Positions 6,501 through 62,561 of a stretch of 64,000 nucleotides of DNA are shown piece after piece. Under the pieces are notes generated by a model. The model searched no databases and was not told the origin of the DNA. It saw only the letters and a list, made by a program, of their open reading frames with translations. A program made the translations under genes and the position numbers. How positions within the stretch are numbered: the first letter of the stretch is position 1; every line of letters starts with the position of its first letter. This stretch comes from Sphyrna mokarran (taxonomy: Eukaryota), in NCBI GenBank assembly GCA_024679065.1, contig JAGIQG010000016.1:9672001-9736000 (forward strand), given 5' to 3'.

Positions 6501-6515
6501 GGACAACGCGTTTAG
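6501..6515 (+). CDS. Candidate 15-nt micro-exon (phase 1-1; xTTRL)
   Basis: gtctttcag|GGACAACGCGTTTAG|gtaagt. Perfect donor, length divisible by 3. Confidence 0.45.
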   Translation, partial: GQRV

Positions 6516-6909
6516 GTAAGTCTCATCTTCATGACTGCGTATTTGCTCTTCACGTGAGTATTTTAATGAATACCCGCATCATGTCATTGACAGAACAGTA
6601 CTCTTGCGAATTTCGTGTTCTGTTGCATCACACGGAGAGTGCGTTAGACAACTTAATCCTAAGTTTCTGACAGGACAATATCTCTTCCTTTAAGGTGAAG
6701 ACATGTATTTTCTTTTTTCTTGCACCTGTTAATAATTTGCCAGAATTTTGTCAGTGTCTCGTCGCAAATGATCTTTGAGACTGCTTAATAATTGATTCTG
6801 AGTATGGGACAACCTTTTATATGTTATCAGAGATATGGAAGTTAACACATATTTTCCTATTCCAAGAACACCAGTGCATAAACCGTATCTGCTTACTTGG
6901 CTTCCTTTA

Positions 6910-7193
6910 ACGTTTATGTATTAGTAAGAGAGAAGGCTTATAGTCACACTGCAATGAACAATCCCTAGTTGTCACAGAGTGGCGTCGGTTTACTGAGGGA
7001 GAATCTGGCATGGCCAATGCAACTAACCTGCATATAGTTGGGGCGTCACAGTGCCAGAACACTCGGAGAAAACGCAAGCAGACATGGCGAGAAGATGCAA
7101 TTCCTTTAGAGAGCATAACCCAAGCCTGGGATCGAACCCGGGTCCATGGCGCTGTGAGGCAGCAGTGCTAAAAAATGTGCCACCGTGTCACCC
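6910..7193 (-). mobile_element. HE1/V-SINE-type tRNA-derived SINE
   Basis: The minus strand begins gggtgacacggtggcaca...agcactgctgcctcacagcgccatggacccgggttcgatccc (A-box-like, B box GTTCGATCC), followed by the V-domain core. Confidence 0.85.
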
Positions 7194-7439
7194 CCCAGTG
7201 ATGCTAACATGAGCAATCTCTGGAACGTCGTTCGTTTCAGCCATTGAAGACAAACATTTTTTTTTTCCTTTAACTCGTCACGAATTGTCGATTCTGTGAC
7301 AAACATACCATAATTGCTAGCCTAAGTCACGTAATCTTTAGGACTGCACTGTGTCATTGAGGGTTACAGCAAATAAACTCGCCCTCTGGCACAAGTTATC
7401 CACGCCCCTCTTTTTAACGACCAGGCTAGTTACAAATGC

Positions 7440-8690
7440 CAAAGCTTGGGAAAATTCATCTATAACCATGATATCTTCTATTTTAAGATCTCCCTACCTT
7501 TTTTGAAAAAAAAAGTAGACTATCTAGTTTATCCATGCTCCACATTATTTTGTAGACCTCTACAAGATCATCCCTCAGTTTCAACGCTCCAGAGGGAAAA
7601 ACATGTCTCAGTCTGTGCATCCTCTCTTTATTGTTCAAACCATCAAATCTTAGAAGTGTCCAAATAAATATTTTATCCAGCCTTTTCAGCTTAATAATAT
7701 TCTTGCTAGAACAGGGTGAACAGACCTGTAAACAGTATTCCAAGTGTAACCATACTCATGTCTTGTAGAATTTCATTAAGATGTCCCAACTCCTGCATTT
7801 AATGTTCTGGCTAATGAAAGCATGCCAAATACTGTTTTTTTCCCTCTCTGTCCAACTATGACTCCACTTTCAAGTTATTATTAACATGTGCCTCTAAATC
7901 TCTTTGTTCTGTCCTTCTCCCCAACGCCCTATCATTAACTGAATAAGTCCTGGCCTTGGTTCGATATCCCAAAACGCATCACAGCACATTTTTATAAATT
8001 AAACGCCTTTGCCATTCGTCAGCCCACTGGCCCAAATGATGAACACACAGTTGCTGCCCGCGATATCCTTCTTCATTTTCTACTATCCAGTGTCATCTGC
8101 AAACCTTCGAGTTATTCCTCCTAAATTATCATCAACATCATTAATACAGATCGGGGTGGCGGCGCGGGCTCGTTGGGCCGAAGGGCCTGTTTCCCGTGCT
8201 GTTTCGTTCTTTGTTCTTTGTTCAGATGACAAATAACAGTCAATCCAACGCCAATCCCCGAGGCACACCGCTGTTCAAACTTTTCCACAACCACACTCTA
8301 GCTTCTGTCATCAAGCCGGTGATGTATTCATTCAGCTACCATACGCTTTACCCAAGAGATTCAAAGCTAAGCAGCCTCCTGCCATGCGATATCTAGTTAA
8401 AGGCCTTGCCAAAGTCCATGTAGATAAAATCAGCTGCACTGCCGTCTTTGACCTTCCTGGTTCCCGCAGCAAAACATCAAACAAGTTTTTGAGACATGAT
8501 TTTCCACTCACAAAGCATGACTGACTTCCCTAATTCCTCCATGCTTCTCTAAACGACTGAAGATTCTGTATCTCAAAATATCTTCTAACAACTTAGCCAC
8601 TGCAGATGTGAGGCTCAGCAGCAAATAGTTCCCGGGCTTTTCCCTGCAATCCTTCCTAAAGAAAGGCATACCATGTTTTACCATGCAAAA
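7440..8690 (-). mobile_element. CR1 LINE ORF2 3' part (degenerate), interrupted at 8150-8222
   Basis: Minus-strand peptides INDVDDNLGGITRRFADDT, EYCLQVCSP and LKLRDDLVEVYKIM. Confidence 0.85.
8150..8222 (+). mobile_element. 3' tail fragment of SINE/CR1 (same family as 37967 and 53424)
   Basis: cggggtggcggcgcgggctcgttgggccgaagggcctgtttcccgtgctg...gttctttgttctttgtt is the near-exact reverse complement of the start of 37967-38030. Confidence 0.8.
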
Positions 8691-9720
8691 TTATCCCTTA
8701 CGTCTCATTTGTAACTATTCCCCAGCGCCTTAAGATATTTCCTTCCTCTCGTAGCGAACAGTTCAGCACTGGGAAATAGCCTCTGGGAACCCACCCGATC
8801 TATACCACTCAACATCTTATAAACCTCTATCCGGTTACCTCTCATTCTTCGTCTCTCTAAGACCAAGTTCCCTCAACCTACCCCATAAGGCATGCCATCC
8901 AATCCAGACAACATCCTTGTAAATCTCCTCTACACCCTTCCAATAACTTCAATATTTGTCTTGTAATGAGTCGACCAGAAATGCGCATAATGCTTCCAGT
9001 GGGGTCTGAGAAGGGGTCTATACTGCTAAGATTCTTACACTTGATATTATACTCCTTCAACCCATTTGACCTACCAAAATGGCCCACTACACATTTATCC
9101 GGTTCGAAACCCACCTGCCACTTCTCTGCCCAGTCTTTTGTCGGATATAAGCCACACTGCAACTTTTGACATCTCTCCAGACTATCCACAACACCACCAA
9201 CGTCTGTGTCGTCGACAAACTTATAACCCATCCCTCCACTTCCTCACCCAGTTCATTTGTGAAAATTAAAAACAAAAAGGGTTCCAGAACAGATCCTTGG
9301 GGCACTTCATTGGTAACCGACCTCCATGCAGAAAAAAGATCAATCAACAACCACTCTCTGCCTTCTATGGACAAGACAGTTCTGTATTCCATAGGCGACA
9401 GCCCCATGGATCCCGTGCCCTCAGGAAGTCCTCTGTAACTATTCCCCAGCACCTTAAAATATTTTGTTCTTCTCCTATGGACGTATTGTTAAAGTCCATA
9501 TACAACACATCTACCGCTCTTCATCCTTCCATGTGTTTAGCCACATTTTCAAGGAACTCAATCAGCCTGGTAAGACACGAGCTGCCCTTGACAAAGCCGT
9601 GCTATTTTTGAGCATACTAAACTTCTCTAAATATTCAGAAATCCTATCCTTTAGGATCCTCTTCATCAACATACCAACAACTGAGGTTAGACTTACCGGT
9701 TGGTAATTACTGGTGATTTT
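8690..9720 (-). mobile_element. CR1 LINE ORF2 RT fragment with internal deletion
   Basis: Peptides WRSVTNEVPQGSVLEPFLFLIFTNELGEEVEGW and KFVDDTDVGGVVDS..WAEKWQVGFEPDKCVV. Confidence 0.9.
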
Positions 9721-9869
9721 GTCTGCCAAAACCAGCTGTCAGCTCACTTTATTGAATGAGTTTAATCTTTTTCATTCTTTCCATTACACGTATGCGTTTT
9801 CGTTTCATTCTGATTATTTCCAGCTTCCAATGTTGTTTGTAATTCATTGGCATGCATAGAGGATCGGTT

Positions 9870-10912
9870 AACTGACCAAAATAAAGGAGCGTGATTTTTT
9901 TCTGTTTTGTGATTGGCGATCAGAGGCTAAAGATATGCCTCAGGGATCATTGTTGAGACCACAATTGTTTACGATTTACATAGACGATTTTGAGTTGGAA
10001 ATCAAATGTAGTGTCAAAAATCGCGGCTGTCACTAAGGTGAGTGACAGAGCAACATGAGCTGAGGACGCAGAAAATCTGCAATGGGATATAGGCAGTCTT
10101 ATTGAATGGCGAGGGTCTGGCAGATGAATGCAAGATCATTCATTTTGCTAATAATAACAGCAAAATTGACTACTATTTCAATCGTAAAACACTGCAGCAT
10201 GCTATTGTGAAGAGGAGTTGATTGTTCTTGTGCAAGACCCTCAAACAGTCGGTTTGCAGGTGCAGCAGGTAATGAAGGAGACAAATGGAATTCTCAATTT
10301 TTAGAGGAATGACGTCATTTTGCAGCTGTGTAAGGTGCTAGTGAGACCACACTTGCAGTACTGTGTACAGATTTGGTTTTCTTAATTGAGAAATGATATA
10401 CCGCCGCTGGTTGGTTTGCAGAGGAGATTCATTAGATTGGTTCTGACATTGAGAGAGTTGGTTCATGAGGACAAACTGAGTCCACTGGGGTTATACTCAT
10501 TAGAATTCAAAAGAATGAGGGGAGATGTTATAGAAACGTATAACATTATGAAGGGAATAGATGCAATAGCGACAGAGAAATTGTTTCTACTGGTGGGTGA
10601 AACTCGAACATGAGGAGATAACTTCAACATAAGTGAAATCCTATTTAAGACTGAGCTGAGAAGGAACTTCTTCATGCAAACGATTGTGAATCTCTGCAAC
10701 TCACCGACCAGTAGAGGAGTTCAGGTTACGACATTGAATGTTTTTAAGACGAGGATTGATTTTTCTTTGAACAATAAAGAAATTAAAGGTTATGACGATC
10801 GGGTGCGTAAGTCGAGCTGAGTCCACAAAATAGATCAGCCATGATTTTACTGAAAAGTGGAACAGGTTCGAGGAGTCACGTGCCCTATACCTTATCATAG
10901 CTTATGTTCTTA
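9870..10912 (+). mobile_element. CR1 LINE RT to 3' end
   Basis: PQGSLLRPQLFTIYID motif and LQRRFIRL..LGLYSLEFKRMRGDVIETYNIMKG, ending in a cttatgttctta tail. Confidence 0.9.
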
Positions 10913-12068
10913 AACTTACCCTTTCAAAAAATGTCAACTCCCTTTCTAACTTTATGTTGTGTAATCGCCAGTTTCTTTCTGAACCAATGTTATGTCATTC
11001 TTAAGTTTGACAACAGTGCATCCCATTATACAAACAATCTACAACTCTATTGTCAATTGTCATCATGAATTCGGCTGTCTGAGCTCAATTCGCTGCCTGG
11101 TACAATTCAAGTAAAACACTCAACATGCTAATAAGCACCCACAATTCCTAGGGGTTGCGTGTAATTATGTTTCATTAAATGCTTATCTCAGCAAACAATC
11201 TATTTTTCAAATGAACGTGCATTAAATCTGTGCGTTCCTTTTTGTCTATCCTGCTCTTTATCACATGAAATCCGACAAAAATTGCCATGCATTATCTATT
11301 GTTCCCGAGACCTGGTGGATTTTCTTGATTGTGTTGCATTTTTTTTTAATGTTCTGATATCTTTTTATAGATCTAGCATTTGTCTAATGTCAGGTGTTGA
11401 AGTTATTGGTGTGGATCAAGTTGCTTTATTTTCCCACCCTTTTCAGATTGTGGATTTAACGTTTGCAGTTTGAAAATATAAGGGATTATTCAATAATTTA
11501 AGCATTCGCATATATTTCAAATCTGCATCGTCCATTTCCGCATTAACTTCATTTACAACACTGACATGCACTGCATAATCCCCGAGGATCCTACTGGCCC
11601 ATAGCCGAATTCGATTTTCATTTTTTTCTTCTAAAGAAATAAATCTTGCATATGTGTGACAAGGTAGCATATACGCTGTTGAATAATCTATTCTTCTATT
11701 CAAAATACTCATTTTGAGAGACGAGAAACTGGAATAAGAGGGAATCTGTTCCACAGATCTTCGAATTGGTTCGATAATGGTGCAGGTGACAAAAATGCAT
11801 TAATTTCCCGAATTTTGCATACATGCTCTTAGATTTGTTGACACATACACTTTTTTGGTGAATTAATTTTAAATGCTATGCAATTCTTAACTGTTGGACA
11901 GATTATAATTGTGTGACACTGAAGCTACATCACAACTAAGGTCCATCTTCCTCCAGTGTTCTGATTTGAATTTCAATTTGATTCTTTGAATCAGTTGAAA
12001 TTTGCCTGTTGATCATAATCGAATGGAGAAGTTTTGCAAATTTCATTGCACTGCTTTTCCTTCCCCAG

Positions 12069-12089
12069 AATTGAACAGATATAAGACTG
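12069..12089 (+). CDS. 21-nt micro-exon (phase 1-1; ELNRYKT)
   Basis: cttttccttccccag|AATTGAACAGATATAAGACTG|gtaagg. Strong acceptor and donor; the phase-0 frame has a stop. Confidence 0.75.
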
Positions 12090-13262
12090 GTAAGGAAATG
12101 ATTAAGAATTTGTGATATTAATGTTTGATCCCGGAAGAAGCTGAGCCATGGTGGCATATGCTACTCTGTCATTTGCAGTAAGTAAATAGTAATGGAGAGT
12201 TCTATTTCAAAACGATGGAGTCCACGATTGCTGAACTACTAGAAAGGGAGGTGTCTTGCAGATGTAGGATTCATGTAAATGAGCAGCGTTTTATTTTACA
12301 TGTTCAATATACTATCCTGATTCACGATAAATGAAAGGCAAATAAATGAAAAAAAATGAGAGCGAATGACCTAAGACAGGAGAAAGTTGAATGCCCACAT
12401 CAGAGAAAAGGGCAGAAACAATAGACAGGTTTATGTTGATTTACAGATATCTGTCAGATTAAAGCGCTGTTGGCCAATTTATTTCTCCATTTCTGGTGTC
12501 ATCAAAGATGTATATATGCCTTGGTACATTCTTTGACATTTTGGCATTCAGTGTATTCTGCCCTCTGGTTGTTATTATGTTTTGTGTTTTCGTTTCCTTC
12601 TCTTTTGATGTTGGGGCACATCAATTCACAGATCTCTTGGGAATGTTTGATTTTTTGAGCGGCCACTCTATGTCACTGTGAAACATTCGGCCAGAGAAAT
12701 CAATGCCTTCGCAGCTGTTGGTTGTAACATTGCAGGCGGAGTGTTTTTTTTTTGGACCTTGTACCTAGAAGCAGATATGCAGATCCAACTATATAGTGTA
12801 TTGCTGTTCGACGTCGGGATGCATATCTTTTAATATCTGTTAATAATTTTGGCATCTCCATTGATCGCAGTCTGATAGTCCAAGTGATATTTATGTCACC
12901 ATGCTTGAGTTAATACATTTTTTTTATCCGCCTGGAGTTTAAAACTTCTGCCAGAAAACTCCACGACGAAAGTAACTTGCATGCATATTGATTTGTGTTG
13001 TTGTTAGTCTTATTTCTGTTTAATTCCGTTGTAAACTACGTACCGTTTATTTATTTCAATGCGCTTTCCTGTGTTATCGGGTATCAAATTTTACGAAATT
13101 GTGCGCACAATATGGAAGCAGACTAATACCACACTCAGAACCGTTCCACTAAAAATCACAAAATCACAGATGCAGGCTAGCAGACAGGAATACGATTTTA
13201 GAATGCAAATGAGAGCTAGTACACAGGAGGAGCTGGTCAGGAAGGCATCCCCAGTTGCTAAG

Positions 13263-14062
13263 TTAGAACATAGAACATTACAGCATAGAACAGGCCCTTC
13301 GGTCTTCGATGTTGCGCCGACCAATATAAAAAGCAATGCCCCTCCAAACTAAACCATTCCCTTCTCTTCCCTATACTTATCAACTAACCTCTTAAACGCC
13401 ACCAAACTTGGCGCATCTACAACTGCTGCAGGCAGGGCATTCCACTCCCGAACCACCCTTTGGGTAAAGAACCTACCTCTGATATCCGTCCTATAACTAT
13501 CACCCCTTAATTTAAAGCTGTGTCCCCTCGTGCTAGCTTTTTCCATCCTAGGAAAAAGGCTATCACTGTCCACCCTATCTAAACCTCTAATCATCTTATA
13601 TGTTTCGATCTGGTCCCCTCTTAGCCTCCTCCTTTCTAACGAAAACAACCTCAAATCCCTCAGCCTCTCCTCATAAGACCTGCCCTCCATACCAGGCAAC
13701 ATCCTGGTAAACCTCCTCTGTACCCTCTCCAATGCCTCCACATCTTTCTTATAATGTGGGGACCAGAACTGCACACAATACTCCAAGTGCGGCCGCACTA
13801 GAGTTTTGTACAGTTGCAACATGACGTTGCGGCTCCGAAATTCAATCCCCCTACCAATAAAAGCTAAGACTCCATATGCCTTCTTAACAACCTTCTCGAC
13901 TTGACTGCCTACTTTCAGGGATCTATGCACATACACACCAAGATCCCTCTGTTCATCTAGACTACTAAGAATCCTACCATTTGCCCTATACCCTACACAT
14001 TTATTATTTCTGCCATAGTGCATTACCTCACACTTTTCCACATTACACTCCATTTGCCACCT
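13263..14062 (-). mobile_element. Young 5'-truncated CR1 LINE with an intact ORF2 C-terminus
   Basis: The 244-aa ORF 13349-14083 reads WQMECNVEKCEVMHYG..LYKTLVRPHLEYCVQFWSP..RRLRGDQIETYK..FFTQRVVREWNALP without disruption, followed by a 3' UTR hairpin and gttctat-type tail. Confidence 0.95.
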
Positions 14063-15728
14063 AAAGAAGTTAAAGAAGTACACCTTCCCACCCCACTAAA
14101 TCAGCACTTCTAAACCAGTCAAACACCTTACGGAGACTTCTTAAGATTAGCGTAGCTAGGGAAGCGTCCCTGCCCTTCAAACTTCCTGAGAACAATTGCA
14201 CATCTATTGTTCAAGCTCGGGAGATTGAACTACACCCTAAGTTCGCAGTGGTCGTTTCACCCACGCGCGCTAACACCAGGAAATTCTTTGTTTTTTTTGG
14301 CCTGGTGTGACTTTTTAAATTGGACCACTCTTTTTCAATGCTAATGACCAGTATGTCACGATTTTGGACTCTGATCGTCCGTTAGTTTACAGTTATATGA
14401 GAGTCAGAAACTTGCAAGGAAAAGTTTCTGATCTCCTATGGCTGGAGTGGGAAAAAAAAACATAGTGAAATTTCATGAAAGTGATTACAGTCCATGTTGA
14501 CATTGTGTGTCAACTTCAATCTCAGGAACATTGTTTTTTTTTTCCTTGAGAAAAGACTTGGAAAAGTTTTCATTTCAGCCTGGATTCTACAAAAAAACTT
14601 GCTAATACTGTTATTGACTGAAAAGCCACATCAAACATTCTAATTTGGCAAGCACAGGCAGAACGTTCATGCCTTTTCGTCTTGAGGTAGATCAACATTT
14701 ATTATTGGGCAGGCTAAACGTCTCCTGGTGGTTAAAATGTTACTGCAGGATGCTTTTAATCTTGACGAAAAGAGCCCACAGCAATGTAGATTTGAAGAAT
14801 CAGAACTTCCATTCAGTATCTTCCCCCTGTATTGAGCTTTTCTTTGTTTTAATCTTACTTATTTTCCTCCGAACGCATTTGAAAATTTTGGTAAAAAGGT
14901 TTGCTGAGTTTTCAAGCCTTTGGTGAGTTCTTCGCTGCCTGTTGTATTTTTGATGTTATTCCCTCTTAAAATACCTTGTCACTGAGGCTGCCTCATTAGA
15001 TTCAATATAGACTTTAAAAAAACTGTTTCAACTCAGGGACCTCTCATAGCTGAAACCAATCATTAAGTATCTTCAGAAGTTCATATGTAAACTTCTTATT
15101 GCTGATTCAGATTTCGAGCAGTTCTTATCAACTCGCAGTCTGAATTAAACATGTTTTATGAAGTCGCCCAACGGTTACTGGTTGGAGTAAGCGGTTGGAA
15201 TCAGTTGTGACATTTCGCTTTTGAAGCATGGATGACGCAACAGCATCAACTCCGTTATAGCCCAAAACACATGTGTAGATACATGTTTCTCACGTTTTCC
15301 TCTTGCATGCATGATTTGTACGATGATGTGGTGCCATATTATATAGATTGGAATAAACTGATTGCAGACCAAAAATCAAATTGAATCCAATACCCGAAAT
15401 GTATGTTTCTTCTAGCCAAGCTTTCTTCTCCTGACTTGATCAAGAAAAATTTTCAAGCATATTTTAAAGCTTGATCTCCATTTTGCAAACACATTGTCTC
15501 ACTCGTTAAAAATTCGGAGTATTTCCAATGGTCATTTGGAAATACATCAGATGCCAAACGCGTTACATTTGTAAAGTTATTTTTTCTAGACGTAGAATTA
15601 CTCGTTCAGCTGCATTGACAAAACATCAGTGACTTGTTCCAAACATTCCAGAATCGACACTTCAGTTGCATTTTGCTAAATGATTGAAAAGAAACTGTGT
15701 TTTTCACATATCTGGTCATCACGCTTAG

Positions 15729-15755
15729 CATTGTTATCGGTGATTGATTTCAAAT
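15729..15755 (+). CDS. Candidate 27-nt micro-exon (phase 1-1; ALLSVIDFK)
   Basis: tcacgcttag|CATTGTTATCGGTGATTGATTTCAAAT|gtaagt. Confidence 0.45.
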
Positions 15756-16213
15756 GTAAGTAATTATATTTTGATCTAAAAAATTGCGTTTGATAATTAC
15801 AATGATGCGTCTCTGGACACTTTATTGACACTGTTGTTCTGAATTAAACGTTCTATGAATTTAATTGCCATACATGTTGCAAAACGTTCACATATATAAG
15901 TGCAATGTACTCATGGTGATGTTGAAATTGAAATTACGAATGTGTTTAAATTGTTAATATTCTATTAGCATTAATTTAACCGATTGTCTTCTAACCATTT
16001 TATGCATTTTTGTGTCAGTATTAAAAAAAATGCGTGACGTTCGCAATATAATAGTCGATGTTTTACAGCATGTTCTCCGAATTCTGATTGTACACATGCC
16101 AGATTTCGTTTGGAATTTCATTTTGAAATATCTGTGAATTGTCGTTGCCCAAGGTTTGTTGTTGTTAAATGAATTCAACTGTAGAAAATAAATGTTTACT
16201 TATGTAATCTTAG

Positions 16214-16243
16214 GTCCTGCTACTTTAGCGAAGTGTCAAGCTG
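16214..16243 (+). CDS. Candidate 30-nt micro-exon (phase 1-1; xPATLAKCQA)
   Basis: ttatgtaatcttag|GTCCTGCTACTTTAGCGAAGTGTCAAGCTG|gtaagg. It has the same length and A-x-C placement as exon 52607-52636. Confidence 0.55.
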
Positions 16244-16269
16244 GTAAGGAATTTAGGACAAGCACGCGC

Positions 16270-16308
16270 GTGTGTGTGTGTGTGTGCGTATGTGTGTGTG
16301 TATGTGTG
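16270..16308 (+). repeat. (GT)n microsatellite, imperfect
   Basis: Seen directly. Confidence 0.95.
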
Positions 16309-17126
16309 AATAAGTAAATATTAAAGAACTTATTTTGCTCCATTCTTAATTAGAGATCGGCAAACATTTCCTGTAAGTTCGAAACAAAGCATGTGATTTC
16401 AGGGGAAAATGGAATTTCACTCATGAGGATACAATATTTGGGCGAAAAAACATCTTGCTGCAATGGATCCATATCGTGACCATATCAAGTAAACAATGGA
16501 ACATGACTGTATTTGACTTCATTGTCAAATGCATTGGGATACAGTGCACAGTCAATTCTACTGTTTGCTACACAAACACAACGTAACTTTCGTAAAATGC
16601 ATCGAAGAGAAGAAAGAACAGTGTTCAGAAGCTGGACTTACACTCATGAAAGCGAGAATTTAGCTTTGTAAATGGGAGGCTCATTTAAAAGACCAACGAG
16701 AGCGATGTAGAGTATTTTTTGTTGCATCAGTCCGCATGTGACATCAAACATGTTCATCTTTTCCTGATGGATAAAAAATGCAAGGGGATATGCCCTGGGC
16801 AACGGGGCCTTGTTTATGCGGTGGGTTTTCCAAAGCAGAGGTGACTCCAGGTGATCAAAACGAATGGTAAATTTGTTTACGCGATGGACTAGGCTGCATT
16901 CACAAGCGCTTGTATTTCGTTACATCCTTGGAGAGATCAGGGGCCGTACCAACCACCGAAAATTCGGAAACACTGTTTTTCTATGGTGCGTATTTCAAAA
17001 TGATGTGTCGTAGTGGGCATGACTAATTTCCTATGTACCCAGAGAAAGGAGAGGTGTTCATCCAGTTTCTTAATTATAGCGTAGGCATGGAGAGAACAAA
17101 TGGTATTGCGCTCAATCACTGCATTA

Positions 17127-17409
17127 AGTTAAAGTTTATTTATGTGTCACAAGTAACACTTAGATTAACACTGTAATGAAGTTAATTGAAATCCCTCGTG
17201 GTCGCCACACTTTGGTGTCTGTTCGGGTCTATGCATCTAACCAGCACGGCTTTTAGACTATGAGATGAATCACAGGAGGAGGCCCATGCAGACACGTTTT
17301 GAACAAAAGTGAAAATTCCACACAGAAAGTGAGCCAAGCTGGGCATCGAACCCAGGTCCCTGGTGTTGTGAGGCAGCAGTGCTATCCACTGTGGCGCCTA
17401 TTGTCACCG
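17127..17409 (-). mobile_element. HE1/V-SINE-type SINE
   Basis: Head (reverse complement) reads agcactgctgcctcacaacaccagggacctgggttcgatgcc. The tail is the same type as the 6910 copy. Confidence 0.85.
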
Positions 17410-52000: not shown

Positions 52001-52606
52001 CGCATATGTATGAATCTGGTTTTGCAAATCCTTCCCATATTTAATCTGATAAAAAAAAGACAACATTTTCGGCCGTAAGTCCAGTTGATGAAAGCAAACA
52101 AACGTCAAAACGCTCCTTTTGTTTCCCCAATCCAAAGGGTAATAGCCCTCGGCTCGATTAACTATCTGGTCATTGTTTCAGTCATTTTAATTCGAACACT
52201 GGTTGATACCGGCCATCAAGTTCTTTCCTTGTTTTGCAATTTACCTACCTGCTTCGTGATAATGTGTGGCGTTTGGGGGAGAGATAGCATATTAATTTTG
52301 ATTATCTGTTTATATTATCGAGCCTTCTAATATAACACCATACAGAAGAACAAATACATATTGGAATATCACAAATTAATGAGTTGAGAATGTGAAATGA
52401 ACTACAGCATTTTATTTCTTTTCATAAATACTTTTCCATTTTGTTTCAATTAATGATGAAATATTTCTTGGTAACGGCAAGAATATGATCTGAACATGCC
52501 TCGTGCCTGCCGTATCTCTTGTTTTTTTTTTCAAATCTGAACCTTAGAAGTGATGTCATCACAAGAATATGTTATGCAAAAATGTTTTTTTTTCTTCTTC
52601 TCCAAG

Positions 52607-52636
52607 AGGATAAAAATTTCGCCTGGTGCAAATATG
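52607..52636 (+). CDS. 30-nt micro-exon (phase 1-1; xDKNFAWCKY)
   Basis: tttttttttcttcttctccaag|AGGATAAAAATTTCGCCTGGTGCAAATATG|gtaagg. Confidence 0.65.
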
Positions 52637-53423
52637 GTAAGGATGCAATGGACTTGTTGTACTTAATCCTGAAATTAGGAAAAGCTGAATGATGAGAGGC
52701 AGCCATCACTGAAAAATTGACAAAATTGAAATAAAATCTGTTTATGCCAGCATTCAAACACCCCAAATTCAGAATTTCTCCGTACCTATTTGATATTGTG
52801 AGGAAGTGCAAATATATATAATGATCCAAAGAATGGGTTTCACCTCATGTAGACAGAACAAAAGCATGGAAGACATGGTTGGGCACGGAATCTATATGGA
52901 GATCGAGATACATACGGTTTTAGAAACGTGACAACAGAATTTGTATGAAAATGTATTAAAATGCCAATAGTATCAAAAGGAAAAATCATAATGTTCAAGC
53001 CGATTATGGAATTGAGACACAGAAAAGTAGAACACGATTACTCTACAGAAAGCAATGGATACGGCACTTAGGCATGCACATATAATGGAAAGCAATGAAG
53101 CAACAGATCATACTCTTGAAGAAAAGAAGGAGAAGGCAATGTTTTAAAATAAATGTGATTAATATATGTGATATCATGTTTTGCCTGGCAAATATGTAAC
53201 GCGATGGAAGAACATAATTTGTAGCGGCGATTCAAATATGAATTCTTAGACAGTTTACTTAAAATCAGGTAGAACGAGAAGAGGCATAGGCATGTGTATA
53301 GTTCTTAGATGTAGTGATGCGTGATTGCCACATAATTACAAGTATATCAGTATATATTAGTTTTTAATGATGGTGGACAGGTGCGTTAATGAATGAAATG
53401 GACTCATGGAAATTGGTGTTATA

Positions 53424-53751
53424 TAGAACAAAGAACAAAGAACAAAACAGCACGGGAAACAGGCCCTTCGGCCCAAGGAGCCCACGCCACCACTCCGATG
53501 ATCCCACGTCTACCCGCGATCCATGTCCATGTTTATAGACTTATGGATTAAAAACCAAATTTGAGACAATTTAAGGAGAATTTGTTTTGCCAATTAGCCG
53601 AAGAGCACATCTTTGGGATGCGGGAGGAAACCGGAGCATCTGGAGAAAACCCACGCAAGCACGGGGAGAATGCACAAACTCCCACAGACACAGGCCCAAA
53701 TCCATGTATCTGCACAGCATAGCGACAGTCAACGTTTAAGACATGTTGACC
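53424..53751 (-). mobile_element. V-SINE variant (second full copy)
   Basis: (agaacaa)n tail; collinear with 37967-38287. Confidence 0.8.
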
Positions 53752-54729
53752 ACTCGTTTAATGCATATTCAAATTTCAGAAAAGCTGTGGGAACAAAATG
53801 AGCTTCTGTTTTAAATTTGAACCAATATTACAACTGTAGGATTTATTTATCGCAGGAAATAAATAATTGGCAATTTACTACAGTTCCTTTTTTGTATGCT
53901 CTCATGGTAAGCCGCTAGACGAGAGTAATTCCGTATTTGCATATAGGTATTCTGAAATAGTTGTGAACGTTAAGTTTGCATTAGCTGTAAATTCTGAAAA
54001 CCGCATTGAAAATGCAGCTGCATTTTACATGTAGTTCTGAGTTGAAAAGGCAATAGTTTAATGCGGTATATGACATAGATTCAAATCTTCATTGAGTTGT
54101 TTTATTAAATTTAATATCGTAACGTAATCACTAGCGAAACAAATTGAAGAAAAATGATCTGTAATTTGGTTCTGTATGTGCGCCCGAATTGAACAGAGTT
54201 GGACGCTTCAAACACAATTCTATGCAAACTGAGACCTGTGATAAATGTTGCATGCATTATAATTTCAACGGCTGCTCATAAAATAAATGATTGTCTGATT
54301 ACTGCAATATTCTCTTCTTTACATTTGCGAAATAATTCGTCTGAAGTAATATTAACGAAATGTATTATACTTACTATGTTTATGTTGTTATGGAATCGGA
54401 AGAGCTGCAGGATTTACCATGAAATTGTGAAGCCAATACTCGACAATTGACTTGTTTTGATATTGGTTGAACTGTCGACGGAGCTGGTGTTAAATTAAAT
54501 GGTTTTTTTTTCTTACCATTTGGCAAGATAATTTTGGATCCGGGATAAGATTTGGACACTGATCTCATGATATGTTCACTGAAGTAAACACAACGTCAAA
54601 GATAAGTTTGATGAATGGAAGTGCAAACAACAGCATTTCTGCAATTCTGTTTGTATTTGCGCATCGGACGCAGTGTTACAAATTGCAAAATTTGCTCGAG
54701 AACTCAACAGTCAGCCACATAGAGCCACA

Positions 54730-55650
54730 GATTCATAAAGGCTTACAGCATAGAAACAGGCCCTTCGACCCAGTTGTCCATGTCATGTCGTGTTTTGCTT
54801 TTTAAACACTTAGAATAATTTCAATTGCCCGCACGTGGCCCATATCCCTCTGTATCCATCGTGGCCATGTAACTATTTCAATGCTCTTTCTTAAAAGAGA
54901 AAAAAAAATGTACCCGCCCCTGCTAGTACCTCTGGCAGATTGTTCCAGACACTCGTCAGTCTCTCCGTAAACAACATGATGACTGAACACTTGTGTATCT
55001 TTCCTTTCTCATGTTAAACCTATGACATTTATTTTAGTCTCCGCTACCTTTGTGAAGTGATTGATATTGACTATCAATGTATCAATGCCCCTCATTATTT
55101 TATTGGCCTCTATAAGGTTACCCCACATCCTCTGAGAGAAATGTTCCAGTCTATTCAGCCTATCCTTATAACTCAATCCAAGTCCCGGTAGCAGCTTAGT
55201 AAATCTTTTCTTTACTCTTCCTAGTATAGTAGTGTCTTTTCTATAATAGGGTTAGGAAATTGCACACAGTATTCCATGTGTCCAAACCAATGTTTTGTAC
55301 AACGTTAAACAAAATGTCCCAAGTCTTGGACTCAATGTTCTGATCGATGAAACCAAGTATGCTGAAAGCCTTCTTCACCACTCTGTGCACGTGACTCGTT
55401 TTCAAGAGACTATGAACACGTACCTCGAGGTCTTTTTATTCTGTAACTCTACCCAGTGCCCGAAAATTAACTGAATAAGTCCTCCCCTGGTTCAATTTAC
55501 AAAAATGCATTATATCGCATTTGTCTAAATTAAACTTATCTGTCATTCGTTAGCCCACTTGTCCAATTAGTCACGTTCCCATTGCAATTGGAAATGCCAC
55601 CAGTCTTGGTGCCATCTGCAAACTTACTATTGACGCCCCTTATTATTTTC
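54730..55650 (-). mobile_element. CR1 3' part
   Basis: Runs from the 3' hairpin acagcatagaaacaggcccttcg to the reverse complement of SKFADGTKTGG at about 55600-55630. Confidence 0.85.
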
Positions 55651-55897
55651 TAAGGAAAACACATTTCATAATGTCTTAATAATGAACTGCAAATTCCAGT
55701 CATCAATTATATTAGTCGATAAATTGACCATTATTTTTGTGTTGCATTTTGTCATTTGTTTTCTTTGTTTTTTTTTTATCCCGCATCCCTCCATCCTTCT
55801 ACCTTATTCGTGCCTTCCCTCTTCATCTACCTCGTTCACACAATTCTGTAATATCACTTGCTCTATTGCTCTCCCTAACTGACTGTGCACTGAACAG

Positions 55898-55918
55898 AAC
55901 GAGCCCGCTGTCGGGAAG
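55898..55918 (+). CDS. 21-nt micro-exon (phase 1-1; ERARCRE)
   Basis: Long pyrimidine-rich tract, branch-point-like ctaac at 55875-55879, then tgaacag|AACGAGCCCGCTGTCGGGAAG|gtgagt. Confidence 0.7.
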
Positions 55919-56524
55919 GTGAGTATTCAGTGAATTCTATATTTTATATTATCATTGATGATCTTTTGAAGTCAATGTTGCTCGTTCTAGCAAAGTACAT
56001 TTGATATTGCTTTCACTATTCAAGTTTATTTTAGTCATGCGAGCAGTGTTTCAAAAGCCAATTTGTTCTTCGCTGAAGAGAATGTCAGGAAAAAAAAAAC
56101 AATGCAAACAAATGTCACAATGTCCGGTGTAATTGTAAAGATAGGGGTTAAATAAGCTTTCTAACATTACAATTACAGAGAGTTTTGGGCTGTCATGCAT
56201 ATGCGGATGGATGGGCAAACAATCTTTGCTATCCTTTTTTTTTGTTTTAGTTTCACAGCTTTTCATTTTTCCAACAGTTCAGGAGATGAAACGTAACGCA
56301 AGGTCACTGAGATTGCGAAACATCATACAACATAATACGAGGAACGTATCCTGCTTTCTGATGAGCAACTATTGCTCGGAAAGGGAGCTACGTTTTGCAC
56401 ATGCATTTAAAAACTCAAGCTGAATAGAAACAAAAACTGATAATTAAATAATTAACAGAAACATGAGCGAACTTCAGTCAAATATATAATGGACGACAAC
56501 ATATTATATGGGTGAATAAACAAC

Positions 56525-56567
<43 letters not shown>
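56525..56567 (+). repeat. (TA)n microsatellite
   Basis: Seen directly. Confidence 0.95.
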
Positions 56568-56570
<3 letters not shown>

Positions 56571-56589
56571 TGTGTGGTTGTGTATACGG

Positions 56590-59300
56590 AAATGACCACA
56601 TGCTGGCCCAGTTCTATTCCATCGTACATCTTGTCGTATAAGGGACAGGCATGAATAATAGTGATGTCTTGGTGAAACAAATGAATCTTACATGTCATCA
56701 GAAGCAAAACATTGATCCCCATCTTCAGCTAGGTGACTGTGGCAAACACAAGAGACTATTACATTTTTAGTTTCAAAGCTGATAGCATTTATGATATCAA
56801 ATAACAAGTACCACGCGGCCGAAGGCGAACTATTGTCGTTTTCACATTCAGGAAAATTTGGGTAGATCTTGCATAATTCCTGTGAGGTCAGGTATTGCAC
56901 ATGTTGCCAACATTCAAAGTCGAAGGTGAAAGACAAGGTTGTAAAACCGACATTTCGGAAATAGTGTACAGGAAAATCTAAATCGTCGAAGCCCCACCTA
57001 ACTCCGACAAGAAAAAAAAAACTGCATATAACAATGCCAAAATTGGAACGTATTAAATTATCCATACGGCATAATGGACGTCCAATATTAATGAAGATCG
57101 ACACAAGCACAGTCATATCCGTGGTGAGTGAAACAGTGTTCAACAAAACTCCCATTCAGCTCGAACCTTATCTTAGCAAGATATCGGCAAGAGTGTGGAT
57201 TTATGCAGGGGATCATTGGGAGTGTTCGGCACAACAAGTATTATTACTTGCCCGAATTTGAAATCATAAAAAAAATAGAAATTCTACAGAAGGAGGTCAT
57301 TTGGTCCATCGACTACGCACCCATAACAACCCCATCCAGCCCGTATCCCGTAACCACACGTATTTATCCTGCTAATCCTGATTATTGTACATATCGGTTG
57401 ACACTAAGAGGCTATTTAGCAGAGCCGATCAATCCTGCCCGCAAATCTTTGGGTTAGGTAACTTTGATTGCACTGGCATGTTCAGGCCGACTGGTGCGAA
57501 ATTAGCTGAAAGAGATGTAGATTCGTTATGATCACTGGGAACAATTTGTTTTCGCTTACATTGCATCTTCATAAGTACAGGGCGCAATTCTTGCACACAG
57601 ATGCTCAAATGCATAGGAAAGCCAATAAGATGTGTCGACAGGACCTGAGCAATGGTGGGACGGAAGGACATCCAGATCATAAGAAGGATTCACTTTAGTT
57701 TTAGCAGTAAAGTAATTCCACCAGTGCGTATATAGGCACAAACCACTGCTTGGTCTTACCAAGGGCAAATTAGCACTATTACCAATAGCGTCAGTTCGAA
57801 TACAATGCTAGCATTATTACACGTAAAATGTCGATATCAACTGGAGCACCAGGTGAGAACTCTCTTGGCAAGTGCCGCCGTCCTAAGCAAGCTATCTTTA
57901 CCAGACATTCCACCGCTGGCACCCAAGTAGATGAAACGGAGATGAAGCTGAATATATTGAATACTTTCCGGTGTCCACACAACACAGACGTCTATGGGGA
58001 AAAAAAGGAACAGGCAGTGGCAAAAATAAAACATCTGGCGATAAAAGTGAAATGGAAAGTTCAGTATAGCTGCAATACTACCCACATTGGAAAAGAAGAG
58101 CACTGAACATGATAGAAGACGGTATACTGATATGTGATTAGTAGTGGGGGCGGGGGGCGGCACGGGTTCATACGTCGAGTGGTCGGGCCTGAGCGCAGGT
58201 ATAGCGATATCTGTAGGTCTGTGCGAAGAATGCCAGCAAGCAAATAAGTTGCAACCGGCAGCCCCACTGCACCCATGGAAATAGCCACGTGGACCGTGAA
58301 CGCGACTTCACGTCGACCTTTCAGCTCACTTTATGGAGTCCATTTTATTCTTTTGGTAAACTTGAAAGCACTCTCAAAATGAGTGAGCGTCCACAAGTTC
58401 AACTCGGCAAACAAACCAAGCATCGAGAATATGTGCACCTTGTTGCAAACAATAGAATTTCGAAGATGTGAGTTATAGGCAATGGATTGGTCTCCAACAG
58501 CCAAGTGTTTACAAGATTTATGCAGATAATCAGGATTCAGCACTTAAAGACAACTTGCAAATAGTATCAATTGGGCTGGCAAAGAAATCTTTCCACGCTT
58601 AAAATTTGCTGGGAAACACAAGCAAGCAATGGCCTCACTGCACAGCAATGACTCCTGCTGGTGATTTGATTGTTGGATAACACCTCTCATCATCACCACG
58701 GCACAACCCGACATGGGTACATGACTCTGAACGGGTTGAGCTGCTGCTGACAAACCTGGAGGAGCAGGTGGAAAAACAAACACGAAAAGTTCAAATAGCG
58801 GGGGTCATAACAACACTCCACAAGAGAAACACCTCGCTGTGAGAAAATTTGTGTAAGAAATTCATCCAATGGTTCCACATGTATACCAAGAACGGTCGAT
58901 CCAAGATGGGACCAGTTCCGAAACAGGTACACATGGGGCAAAGGTTCTTAGGAAAACACCTGGATCAGGTAATGGCCTCAAATTCACCACTCCAAACACC
59001 CAAATCAGTTCGCCTGTGAGAATATGAACGACTCGATTAAGGACTGAATAATTAGTTCAATCAAAGAGCATGTTAGTTTTTGTGAGATTCCAATCACAAA
59101 CCCCTAAGAAAGCCACACTATTTGTTGTTGTGAGGATTTAAATAAATGTGGTTTGAAGTCGGCACTTCTGCCTCTCATGAGGTATTACAACTTTTACCCG
59201 GTGTTGTGAGAAACACCACTGTGGAAGGGTATAGATCAAGACTAAGACTTGCAAAGAGAAAGATTGTATTGCAAAAGCAAAGCACTGGACAAAAATGTTT
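56590..59300 (+). mobile_element. Gypsy LTR retrotransposon remnant (heavily deleted)
   Basis: Protease IKLSIRHNGRPILMKIDTSTVISVVSETVFNK resembles NGHPILMEVDTGAAVSVVS. Downstream sequence appears to be decayed RT and integrase. Boundaries are uncertain. Confidence 0.7.
57320..57460 (-). mobile_element. HE1-type SINE 3' fragment inside the Gypsy remnant
   Basis: acaaccccatccagcccgtatcccgtaaccacacgtatttatcctgctaatcc..gacactaagaggctatttagc resembles 17900-18010. Confidence 0.7.
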
Positions 59301-60508
59301 CGCACTTTAATGCTAGAGATAATAACTAAGACGAGTTAGACTCAAGTTTGATGTTTAGTTTCGAAATACTTTATTGAAAGTAATTGAACATTCTCACATT
59401 CAATGAACAAATTCAAAGAACAAACAATGCAATCATCTTCTGTGTAATGTGGACTCCGTAGTGAAAGGAGGCAACTTGCAAACTTTTTGAAGATGAATCA
59501 CTCACAGGATAGCATAATGATTCGATATTCATCGTGCAGAAGCGGTGAAGGAGTTGGTGATGGCGGGAGGGGCGGCGGGGGGGAGGTTGAAGAATTTCCA
59601 GTGAATTTTCTTATATCACTCACATTGCAGAATAGATGTCATGAATCTTGAACATGCCACTGCATCGAACGCACAGCGGAACATTTGCGCCGCTGATTAA
59701 TAGCTCAGAGATGTTCTTCTTGAGTGCAATTCATTTCTATCCGGTCAATATTCACATCCTTAAACATGCAACTTGCTATGCATGACTTGATGTTGCTAGA
59801 AATAACCATTATTCGGTGCACGGATTTTCTCACACTCATTTCCCACTATATTCACTTTAAGCAAACCCAATTTCACTCATTATCTCTTCGATCTTATGGC
59901 GAATTATCATCACAATGATTGACAGTTTTTTTTTTTTAATATTGTGTGTTCCTTCTCAAGAGGCGATGTTTTGATGTTGCCAAATTGTTCATTCTGTTAG
60001 ATCACTTTGGAAAATGATGACCAGTTTATGGTCAATTGATTTGGGCATGTGTCTCATTCTTGCGTTCGGCGTTTTTTTTATATCTCTTGGTGATTCATTT
60101 TACTTCCCAAGTAGCTTTGCGAATCTTCAACTCATAGAGAAGTGTCTGAAAAAAAAACACGTTTCAACTTTTTTTCAATACACTTGTTATTTAAATGATT
60201 TCGACCATAGCCAAAATATAATAGCATTGTTTTTTTTTTCCAGATTAAAATGTGCTGCTCTTCTTGTTGTCCTTTTTACTGTTTCTAAAACTTCATTAAA
60301 GAAAAATCAATCTTTGTGCAGCCAGGTTTTCCTTTCGTTCTTCTTGACACTTATAACTGCGTCACTCAGTTCATTGCTTGATTGGAGCTTGTTTGCGCGA
60401 CTGTCATTGCTGTCTTAATAGTTAATTCACTGTCATTAACGCTCACATCATTTTCTTCAAAATATAGTCACTGAAAAATAATCACAAGTGTCCCTTTATC
60501 TTCCTAAG

Positions 60509-60529
60509 TCCTAGAAGACAAGAGACGAG
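60509..60529 (+). CDS. 21-nt micro-exon (phase 1-1; VLEDKRR)
   Basis: tccctttatcttcctaag|TCCTAGAAGACAAGAGACGAG|gtaagc. The phase-0 frame has a stop. Confidence 0.65.
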
Positions 60530-60916
60530 GTAAGCCGTTAAGAAGATTGTTTTCTTTAATAAGAATTCATATATGGCAGAATACATATATGGATTACTGT
60601 GTCTGGGGTCCTTGGGATTGGTGCAGTGGGTGGGGTGGGTTTTAATCTGAGCATTGTCTTTCTTAAACGACATGGTGTTGAAATTGGACTCTTCCCTTTC
60701 TTTGAAAATTTGAATATGAAGAAAGTGATTCTTTGAATTCACACTAGGCGAGCTTCTGTATCGTCCTTTGAACGAATCTCAACCTTTCCTTGATATGTGG
60801 TTGATAAAACTTTCCTACAACGTGGTGATTTTTGTTTAAATTTCTCTCATTGAAGCCTATTTCAAATTAGCGTTAAAGTAGAAGATTGGTCACCTGCTTG
60901 AACTTACTCCCCACAG

Positions 60917-60937
60917 ATTATAGAATACTAGAGTCCA
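60917..60937 (+). CDS. 21-nt micro-exon (phase 1-1; DYRILES)
   Basis: cttactccccacag|ATTATAGAATACTAGAGTCCA|gtaagt. Both other frames contain stops. Confidence 0.7.
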
Positions 60938-61151
60938 GTAAGTCAGAACATAATTCTTTGCATATATCTTTGAAGTAGGTGAGAATTTTCAATCAGATGG
61001 AGGATTAGTGAGATACTTAGGAAAAGTTTCATGTTCCCTCATTTGGATCTATTAAAATTAAATCTACAATCAAATTTTTGAATGTGCCAATCATATTTTT
61101 GTCTCGTCAGTTGCCCACCTTTTAATTACCAAACACTGTTTTGCTTTCAGT

Positions 61152-61153
<2 letters not shown>

Positions 61154-61186
<33 letters not shown>

Positions 61187-61232
61187 ATGTGTATGTGTGT
61201 GTGTGTGAGACAGAGAGAGGGAGAGAGAGAGA
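61154..61232 (+). repeat. (GT)n-(GA)n compound microsatellite
   Basis: Seen directly. Confidence 0.95.
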
Positions 61233-61839
61233 CAAGTTCATTTATTGAGAAAAAGAAATATCAAGATTTGTTCAAGTGTCATTAGAAAATACAGCCATGC
61301 GGACAATGCCAGATTTTTAAAAAAAGGCCCAGTTACATTTCAAAATGATTTTGGGGGACCATATGTTAATGGAAACTTTCTCAAGTGAGAAAATAAAGCG
61401 ATTGTTTTCAGTCGAAATGTGAGGGCAAGTATACTATGGAATGTTCTGGTTAAGACCCAAAACTCTTAACCAGTGAGCACCATGTTGCTTGCCAGAAAAA
61501 AAAAAAATAAATGAGCACTCGAATATTATCGGTGAATAAACGGTTGCCTCTGAGAGCTCATAATTTAAAGCATCCAATAGTAAGGAGTTAGCTAGTGGCA
61601 GTTATAATATTGGCACTGTTTTAATCGAATTTGTTTAAGGGTCATGCTATTAAAGCATTTATTGTTGTGTAGTTGTCGGAAAATCTCTCATAATTGCTGC
61701 ATCCAACAGAAGATGGTTGTTTCATGTAGCATATGTCACAATGATAAGTATTAGATGGATTCATGGAACCATAATACGATAATGCCATAAGCTCATAAAA
61801 GTAGGCCAGATGGCCGATCGAGTTGTTCTGATATTCAAT

Positions 61840-62500
61840 TAGAAATGGAATAGTTGCCATGCTCATTCTACTGCTTTCTCTCCACAAGCACTGATCCCAT
61901 TTGACATCAAGAGAATGTCTTTCTATGTCTCGAGTACAGGAAATGGCTGGCCTCCGCAGCCGTCCGTGGAAATCAGTTTGAAATATTCACATCCCTTTGG
62001 CCAGAAAAAAAACACCTTAGTTTTAAAGAGCACATTTTCATTCTGAGTGTCTGCTCTTCAGTTCTCGTGCTTCCAACTTGTGAAAGTGTCCTCTCCACAT
62101 CCCGTCTGTCTAGGCCTCTCAGTATTCCACAAGCTTCAATTAGATTTTTCTTATCCTTCTGAACTCAATAGATCATAGGGCCCAATATCCACAAACGCTC
62201 CTTATATGACAAATGCTTTATTTCTGGCATCATTCTTACGGATTCGTTCCACAGCTCGCACATTTTCCCTGTAAGGGGCTGAAAATTGTTTCCAGAATTC
62301 AAAATTGCCACATGATGAGATCCTTTTATTGCCTTTGCAGTGCATGCTAATACCTTGCATTCTAGCCCGGAAATGAATGCTAACATTGAGCTTGCCTTCC
62401 TAACTATCAATTGAGCACACATGTTCTCTAAAGAGAGACCTGAATCAGCATTGCCAAGTTACTTTGCTCTTCAGATTTCCGAATAAGTTCCAAATTTAGA
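61840..62500 (-). mobile_element. CR1 3' part, degenerate
   Basis: VRKASSMLAFISGLECK..MMPEIKHLSYKERLWILG. Confidence 0.8.
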
Positions 62501-62534
62501 AAAGTCATTCTTTTGAATGGCCTGCAATCCAAAG

Positions 62535-62561
62535 GTATATTTCAAAACTGTACTTTGTGCT
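62535..62561 (+). CDS. Candidate 27-nt micro-exon (phase 1-1; xIFQNCTLC)
   Basis: cctgcaatccaaag|GTATATTTCAAAACTGTACTTTGTGCT|gtaagt. The acceptor is weak. Confidence 0.35.

Follow-up and report, generated by a model that had tools for sequence, protein, structure and literature searches.

The window considered here is a stretch of 64,000 nucleotides (nt) from the 2.77-Gb genome of Sphyrna mokarran, which probably represents the interior of a plus-strand gene of about 1.84 Mb whose many phase-1 micro-exons are predicted to encode a very long coiled-coil rod ending in a B30.2 domain. A sequence-only reading of the window had proposed that twelve small segments belong to a very large, easily mis-annotated gene built of phase-1, Cys-containing heptad micro-exons. 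All twelve are present at their coordinates, with AG upstream, GT(A/G)AG downstream and an open phase 1, in which translation begins at the third base, and their in-order join is stop-free. The window was held out when splice-site weights were derived from 64 exons located beyond it, and the support of each segment is expressed as the number of chance segments expected per 64 kb at or above its score. These segments, together with one strong exon overlooked before, are the following:

1..64000 (contig JAGIQG010000016.1, 9,672,001-9,736,000), plus strand: whole window, predicted introns and micro-exons of one gene
6501..6515, plus strand: 15-nt candidate exon, moderate (1.4 chance segments per 64 kb)
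12069..12089, plus strand: 21-nt heptad exon, strong (0.07)
15729..15755, plus strand: 27-nt candidate, no better than chance (6.0)
16214..16243, plus strand: 30-nt exon with the Leu-x-x-Cys motif of the family, strong (0.45)
37244..37264, plus strand: 21-nt heptad exon, strong (0.45)
41286..41306, plus strand: 21-nt heptad exon, moderate (1.6)
42615..42635, plus strand: 21-nt heptad exon, new, strong (0.22)
46474..46494, plus strand: 21-nt heptad exon, moderate (0.82), with an in-frame alternative acceptor at 46480, 6 nt downstream
52607..52636, plus strand: 30-nt exon, top of the window (0.0)
55898..55918, plus strand: 21-nt heptad exon with Cys at codon 5, moderate (1.7)
60509..60529, plus strand: 21-nt heptad exon, moderate (0.97), with an in-frame alternative acceptor at 60515, 6 nt downstream
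60917..60937, plus strand: 21-nt heptad exon, moderate (0.97)
62535..62561, plus strand: 27-nt candidate, no better than chance (20)

As a set, the segments of the window exceed chance. Among 21-nt segments enclosed by AG and GTRAG, those whose preceding pyrimidine tract reaches at least 70% are 8 on the plus strand, compared with a single one on the minus strand; under the same pyrimidine criterion, lengths of 9-60 nt give 18 and 6, respectively. The 8 strong plus-strand segments are all open in phase 1, and 300 local fourth-order Markov simulations yield a mean of 0.31 strong 21-nt segments and a maximum of 3, so that the comparison of strands and of simulated sequence, suggested as a check by the sequence-only reading, places the set beyond chance. 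The 8 segments are six of the original picks, the new exon at 42615 and a segment at 38903, which scores well, yet sits within a high-copy repeat and is probably a chance match. Taken individually, four of the twelve picks are strong and six plausible, while two (15729 and 62535) find no support in the splice-site weights. It is extremely improbable that the segments are chance splice-like matches or a dead, untranscribed relic, as these two chance-level picks might suggest, given the enrichment, the frame bias, the heptad register, the invariant splice sites of duplicated exons, the intact B30.2 exons and the orthologues of family members in other species, all described below.

Two further plus-strand segments of the window are open in phase 1 and reach moderate scores, at 4769-4789 (21 nt, with a GTCAG donor) and at 21925-21963 (39 nt). 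The long open frames of the window are presumably pieces of long interspersed nuclear elements (LINEs), the remainder being unrecognised; LINE-like reverse-transcriptase frames or repeats lie between the exons at 13349-14095 (minus strand), 8878-9488 (minus strand) and about 38-39.5 kb, the last of which contains the segment at 38903.

The exons of the window belong to a much longer chain, whose positions are given here in kb of the window numbering extended past its ends. The region from -800 kb to +1,064 kb (1.864 Mb) was read contiguously, and farther out 17 samples of 8-9 kb each were read. The plus-strand, phase-1 chain runs from about -172 kb to past +1,064 kb, beyond which it was followed through the sparse samples. 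A strict scan from -172 to +1,064 kb returns 145 candidates on the plus strand and 10 on the minus strand; 21-nt segments account for 106 of the 145, which joined together give 1,086 codons without a stop. When no frame filter is applied, from -172 to +820 kb, the length is divisible by three in 117 of 130 strong plus-strand candidates and in 14 of 27 minus-strand ones. In addition, a 29-base pattern drawn from the Cys-bearing 21-nt exon has 15 matches in the genome, 14 of them within the plus-strand chain, against 2 for the reversed-pattern control; the pattern of the 36-nt exon, with 8 matches against 6 for its control, is uninformative as a stand-alone marker. The exon sizes follow an order along the chain, with exons of 36, 27 and 30 nt from about -150 kb, exons of 21 nt from about -34 kb to +817 kb and exons of 27 and 36 nt past +865 kb; 36-nt exons are interspersed among the 21-nt ones even before the 48-kb gap that separates the last two blocks. 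In contig coordinates, the parts of the chain are:

9.522-9.63 Mb, plus strand: block of 36/27/30-nt exons, upstream of the window
9.788-10.164 Mb, plus strand: tandem array of about 20 units
up to 10.489 Mb, plus strand: 21-nt exons
from 10.537 Mb, plus strand: 27/36-nt exons

The tandem array consists of about 20 duplicated units from about +116 to +492 kb, with a spacing of 10.5-42 kb. Three of its exon types were aligned, in 20, 21 and 23 copies (a different exon accounts for one of the 21), and none of their 256 splice dinucleotide positions varies, versus 4-8% of positions in the flanks; since the copies share a history, this invariance is supportive rather than a formal test. None of the 64 exon copies carries a stop or an indel. 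A duplicated block of about 51 kb at contig 10.27-10.36 Mb, also within the predicted gene, is likewise a recent tandem duplication; array and block alike might vary in copy number or depend in part on the assembly.

The encoded peptide has the register of a coiled coil. The 70 distinct 21-nt exons include 54 with Leu at codon 2 and 24 with Cys at codon 5, and codon 5 is hydrophobic or Cys in 57%, which agrees with the hydrophobic residues noticed at positions 2 and 5 in the sequence-only reading; the remaining codons are mainly charged or polar. The hydrophobic codons are 2, 5, 9 and 12 in 36-nt exons and 4 in plus-strand 27-nt exons, and the pattern formed by a 36-nt and a 27-nt exon carries the same a/d register across 21 residues. 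The 21-nt block has a hydrophobic period of 3.5, which is partly forced by the equal exon length. The motif [ED][LH]xxC occurs 17 times in the plus-strand chain. Each 21-nt exon would thus add one heptad, with Leu at codon 2 and, at codon 5, Cys or a different small hydrophobic residue, and a pair of 36-nt and 27-nt exons would add three.

The exon edges bear on the possible tuning of this rod. The last base is G in 118 of the 145 candidates and the first is A in 130, so that skipped junctions yield mostly Asp or Glu; since nearly all exons end in G or A and start with A, skipping would preserve the frame and rarely create a stop. The length of the rod would therefore be adjustable by exon skipping, the duplication of 10-40-kb units providing a second route. 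The earlier suggestion that coiled-coil length is tuned by skipping gains some ground from relatives in other species, whose isoform models, although automatic, differ by blocks of micro-exon size.

Upstream, a second chain on the minus strand starts head-to-head about 33 kb from the plus-strand one and comprises 44 candidates against 6 on the opposite strand. It persists in all three samples read at 8.8, 8.7 and 8.6 Mb, in the direction of a B30.2 exon at 8.558 Mb:

9,466,804 down to 8,557,714, minus strand: sister gene of about 0.91 Mb, with the same order of 21-nt exons, 27/36-nt exons and B30.2
9,499,559-9,499,663, plus strand: 105-nt exon, the most 5' coding exon found in the plus-strand chain, tentative exon 2

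The most 5' exon of each chain is a longer phase-1 exon, of 105 nt in the plus-strand chain and 120 nt in the sister chain. The 5' ends of these two exons share 47 of 75 bases in an ungapped alignment (p of about 0.02, corrected for the region searched), and their acceptors are offset by 9 nt in frame, which suggests internal exons. The DNA comparison of the two chains gives scattered matches only, which were taken as repeats. A Met-Trp motif present in both 5' exons was considered as the start codon of a cytosolic protein and rejected on account of the frequency of the motif, the lack of significant likeness between the peptides and the 9-nt shift of the acceptors; a protein search with the 5' exon gave no match (2 candidates). 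A 121-nt segment at contig 9,506,394 (plus strand) has very strong splice sites and is open in phase 1 only, but does not preserve the frame, and no frame-restoring partner for it was found. The 1.864 Mb read contains a single run of N, of 100 bases, at about 9,556,557, in the 5' part of the predicted gene.

At the other end, a SPRY family search gave three matches on the window contig, and a search of the genome with one of them returned seven divergent B30.2 exons, all with an E of at most 2e-31, the next match standing at 2e-22 (best 150 of 196 candidates). A second query returned the same seven (best 150 of 172 candidates), and neither placed any between 9.5 and 11.338 Mb. These exons are:

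window contig 8.558 Mb (8,557,714), minus strand: B30.2 exon, predicted last exon of the head-to-head sister gene
window contig 11,338,453-11,338,970, plus strand: B30.2 exon, predicted terminal exon of the window gene
window contig 11.879 Mb, plus strand: B30.2 exon of the family
window contig 11.926 Mb, minus strand: B30.2 exon of the family
window contig 13.716 Mb, plus strand: B30.2 exon of the family
window contig 14.320 Mb, plus strand: B30.2 exon of the family
contig C1548 101.418 Mb, minus strand: B30.2 exon of the family

All seven are intact, with a phase-1 acceptor, a TAG end, a SPRY match above cut-off and no PRY hit; likewise, a PRY family search placed nothing on the window contig among the best 150 of 208 candidates, and the contiguous 1.86 Mb contains no B30.2. 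The top match among solved structures is the B30.2 of BTN3A1 (E 2.6e-16). An AlphaFold2 model of the domain, computed with 7 sequences, reached a mean pLDDT (predicted local distance difference test) of 41 and was not used. The sequence-only reading had advised inspecting the downstream flank for a B30.2 exon, and an intact phase-1 one is indeed found 1.6 Mb downstream, at 11.338 Mb. Its identity with the B30.2 at 8.558 Mb is 62%, and the two are sisters in the tree (support 99/97).

The interval between the contiguous chain and this exon carries the same kind of exons: of 8 nine-kb samples at 10.79-11.33 Mb, one of which was placed on a known match, 6 contain plus-strand 27/36-nt exons, and the B30.2 exon is preceded by an 18-nt exon 0.8 kb upstream and a 27-nt exon 11 kb upstream. 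The latter matches, at 6 of 8 residues, the block upstream of B30.2 in a catshark model. The position +817 kb, at first taken as the gene end, was dropped after further 27/36-nt exons appeared downstream, and 55 open stretches between +800 and +864 kb gave one weak Pfam match, below cut-off. The simplest reading of the sequence is that the window gene would end at 11.338 Mb, 1.84 Mb from the most 5' exon, and that other family genes follow. In fact, 4 of 6 samples past 11.34 Mb contain plus-strand 27/36-nt exons, pattern matches occur also at 12.90 and 13.18 Mb, and these exons, together with the four further B30.2 exons between 11.34 and 14.32 Mb, point to four more giant genes. On the minus strand of contig C1548, the pattern of the 27-nt exon matches at 99.31, 99.67 and 100.71 Mb and a weaker, stop-bearing B30.2 lies at 99.10 Mb, so that the interval 99.1-101.4 Mb possibly holds one intact and one broken family member.

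The proposal of a very large gene of Cys-heptad micro-exons with the window in its interior is supported by the chain, its register and its frame, and the strand-biased chain and the intact downstream B30.2 exon are observed directly. Several points weigh against reading all of it as one rod-and-B30.2 gene. The chain has gaps of 54 and 48 kb (the latter from +817 to +865 kb) and, because these gaps are accompanied by about 530 kb unread in the 600 kb preceding the B30.2 exon, a gene boundary may lie within it. The whole-chain counts are partly circular, the 64 training exons having been hand-picked from the two chains, and overstate independence, since tandem copies are not independent; the held-out test of the window is unaffected. 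About ten 18-nt candidates of the array, in which 4 of 60 splice positions are lost, are unlikely to be exons, the 15-base start-like motif of the 5' exon has 877 genome matches against 18 for the reversed control and is probably part of a widespread repeat elsewhere, and the genome searches for B30.2 scored the best 150 candidates of those retrieved.

Such a boundary would make the window exons part of a separate rod-only gene, the plus-strand chain being two or more tandem genes of which the last alone possesses the B30.2 at 11.338 Mb. The shift of exon class from 21 to 27/36 nt near the 48-kb gap, the additional 27/36-nt block ahead of the 21-nt block and the unread majority of the last 600 kb are in keeping with this arrangement, and heptad tails without B30.2 exist in chicken BG genes. 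It is nonetheless unlikely: 36-nt exons are mixed with 21-nt exons already before the gap, neither a convincing terminal exon nor a second 5' exon was found inside the chain, the sister gene, which has the most similar B30.2, repeats the same order of 21-nt exons, 27/36-nt exons and B30.2, and a model of the elephant shark unites Cys heptads and B30.2 in a single chain.

The front end of the gene speaks against another alternative, a receptor of the butyrophilin or BG type with upstream IgV and transmembrane exons and a hugely expanded cytoplasmic tail. Heptads followed by B30.2 resemble a butyrophilin tail, and the best solved match comes from BTN3A1. However, the IgV and transmembrane front end anticipated by the sequence-only reading was not encountered upstream: scans of the 1.86 Mb for IgV, RING and B-box patterns gave none, Pfam matches at -260 to -140 kb were obtained for none of 145 open stretches with 82 codons or more (4 that straddle locus borders excluded), no V-set was found at 8.5-11.4 Mb among the best 150 of 1,261 candidates, no transmembrane or hydrophobic exon with splice sites was found between the 5' exon and the rod, and motif scans for C-type lectin, Ig and transmembrane segments gave chance matches only. 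Moreover, the sister gene begins 33 kb away on the opposite strand, relatives contain SPRY alone (5 of 5 scanned) and the B30.2 groups apart from the sampled BTNs. As for linkage with the major histocompatibility complex (MHC), all 53 MHC class I matches are on contig C1548, and because of this the cluster of the window contig is not MHC-linked, though one family member is on C1548. A receptor of this type is therefore very improbable and largely refuted. With IgV, RING and B-box looked for and not found, and with MHC class I on another contig, the predicted gene is neither a butyrophilin nor a BG gene nor a TRIM.

In the database searches with a seven-domain profile, the named best single-domain matches are all from cartilaginous fishes (catshark, little skate, electric ray, basking shark and elephant shark); one further top match is unnamed, and multi-domain fish proteins outrank these only via summed weaker SPRY matches. 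The automatic models concerned are:

XP_042192744.1, Callorhinchus milii: named 'nuclear-pore anchor-like'
XP_038668997.1 and XP_038672306.1/308.1/309.1, Scyliorhinus canicula
XP_055510696.1, Leucoraja erinacea
XP_069775384.1 and isoforms, Narcine bancroftii
XP_078422387.1, Cetorhinus maximus

Their names are misleading, several being TRIM-like, and most are 175-460 residues long; they are kin of the family rather than established orthologues of the window gene. They share the divergent B30.2 and a coiled-coil-like stalk, to which the Callorhinchus model adds Leu-x-x-Cys heptads: in its 1,697 residues, the family B30.2 follows a long rod in which [ED][LH]xxC occurs 14 times (mean of 0.6 in shuffles). 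Two catshark B30.2 domains have 71% and 68% identity to two members of the genome, and in a midpoint-rooted tree, with no clade test, the seven genome domains and these two lie on one side of a 100/100 branch, separated from 30 TRIM, BTN and other rows chosen from 73 matches, later matches being excluded and the BTNs unresolved among themselves. The catshark isoform models X1 and X2 differ in one 9-residue block and the electric-ray ones in blocks of 6 and 9 residues, matching exon sizes at the window locus, all of these being automatic models. XP_038668997.1 has an N-terminal part that, by eye against the LINE frames of the region, we take to be LINE-like, suggesting a mis-built model that misses most of its gene. 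When the rods of the relatives were compared with the region by translated search (tblastn), nothing significant emerged, and the B30.2 by itself, compared with longer proteins, had no match at E 1e-20 (330 candidates). In the Protein Atlas, the relatives fall in B30.2 clusters, two of which are long SPRY proteins with coiled-coil-type names (scores 0.89 and 0.81), to be taken as leads only. On the whole, this family is represented in the automatic annotation of other species mainly by mislabelled fragments.

If a single mRNA were made from the whole chain, the protein would comprise about 1,500-2,300 residues, that is the 1,086 counted, those of 30-100 exons in unread sequence (from a density of 1 per 20 kb in the strict scan to 1 per 6 kb in the samples) and the B30.2. 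A coiled coil rises about 0.15 nm per residue, and the rod is predicted to be about 200-300 nm long. The chains would oligomerise and be cross-linked by their core cysteines, with several B30.2 heads held at one end, and would in this way bind ligands multivalently and at long reach; other B30.2 proteins suggest, by analogy, immune recognition as the most likely use of such binding.

A cytoplasmic place for this predicted protein, suggested by the analogy drawn in the sequence-only reading, is challenged by two relatives that start with a signal-peptide-like stretch (the elephant shark and skate models, 2 of 7). In part of the rod of the elephant-shark model, 11 of 12 cysteines occupy a core position, with a hydrophobic residue three positions before, and such core cysteines would suit inter-chain disulfides. 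For the sister gene, a signal peptide could be completed by a hydrophobic candidate of 9 codons, in phase 1, at -175,346, but its score of 39 is within the range (29-49) of 12 control blocks. No signal-peptide exon was found for the window gene, 5 of the 7 models have no hydrophobic N-terminus and N-glycosylation sequons are below their shuffled expectation (1 against 4.1 and 2 against 9.9). These observations would fit a cytosolic scaffold with the same gene and rod, RING-less TRIM-like or BG-zipper-like, soluble or held by a short N-terminal anchor, in which the B30.2 binds intracellular partners and the cysteines are reduced or bind metal or lipid. Butyrophilins and TRIMs, whose B30.2 domains are the best solved matches, carry this domain inside the cell, and a soluble BG tail regulates actin-myosin according to PMC4046983. 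This scaffold is a possible but rather doubtful alternative, in view of the signal-peptide-like starts in relatives of different lineages and of the regular spacing of the core cysteines, and the models that lack a hydrophobic start are of small size, so that their 5' ends may be missing. For the predicted protein, secretory export is favoured with about an even chance, followed by a soluble cytosolic location and then by a membrane-anchored, cytosol-facing one.

Combining export with the cluster, it can be put forward tentatively that the window gene belongs to a family predating the split between chimaeras and sharks and rays, with six related genes clustered over 5.8 Mb of one contig. Its products would be secreted, disulfide-stapled rods of up to 200-300 nm with B30.2 heads, acting in extracellular long-reach recognition, and their length would be set heptad-wise by skipping and by the copy number of the 10-40-kb units; the window member (about 1.84 Mb and probably about 200 exons) would be among the most exon-rich vertebrate genes.

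Three known systems share parts of this design. One is that of the chicken BG proteins, in which, according to PMC5938342 and PMC4046983, a long coiled coil is built with one heptad per 21-nt exon and a split first codon, the exon number varies among paralogues and the genes are clustered; 21-nt exons make up 106 of the 145 candidates here. The BG tail has 13-36 exons of 21 or 24 nt per gene (PMC4046983), with hydrophobic residues at codons 4 and 7 (PMC5938342), while the window gene has 145 or more candidate exons within a span exceeding 1.2 Mb, hydrophobic residues at codons 2 and 5, core cysteines and 27/36-nt exons. BG genes possess signal, IgV and transmembrane exons and no B30.2, and are MHC-linked; in the window gene no such exons were found, a B30.2 is the predicted end and the locus is without MHC linkage. 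In butyrophilins (BTN1A1, BTN2A and BTN3A), a few heptads are followed by B30.2, as PMC4046983 and PMC12841164 indicate, and the window gene would share this order if the rod is joined to its B30.2; in contrast, butyrophilins have IgV/IgC domains and a transmembrane helix, none of which was found here, and the window-gene B30.2 is divergent, without a PRY hit, and groups apart from the sampled BTNs. TRIM39, TRIM21 and TRIM58 combine a coiled coil with a C-terminal B30.2, the window gene presenting the domain order of a RING-less TRIM; neither RING nor B-box was found here or in five relatives, and the predicted rod is several-fold longer and built of micro-exons. A description of a shark gene with B30.2, coiled coil and small exons or micro-exons was not found in the literature searched, supplements (with possible gene lists) and most subscription journals being outside the search; the terms B30.2, SPRY and microexon do not occur in the whale-shark genome paper (PMC8455134). 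For TSBP1/C6orf10, which the sequence-only reading had also compared, the literature searched yielded no information on exons.

If the predicted gene is real, repeat-rich and seemingly empty megabases of cartilaginous-fish genomes hold a gene family that standard annotation fragments or mislabels as TRIM, and the heptad-per-exon design of BG and butyrophilin tails appears at a new scale and with a new topology. The locus would provide a natural test case for the recognition of 21-nt exons within introns of 10-50 kb, and one at which exon copy number and skipping directly alter protein length. Should the protein be exported, the oldest jawed vertebrates would have a B30.2 binder of a new, extracellular class.

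Among the minor features of the region, two similar elements with gag/pol-like frames, presumably broken retrovirus-like or long terminal repeat elements, lie in introns of the two predicted genes, at about 9.193-9.199 Mb (minus strand) and 10.422-10.429 Mb (plus strand).

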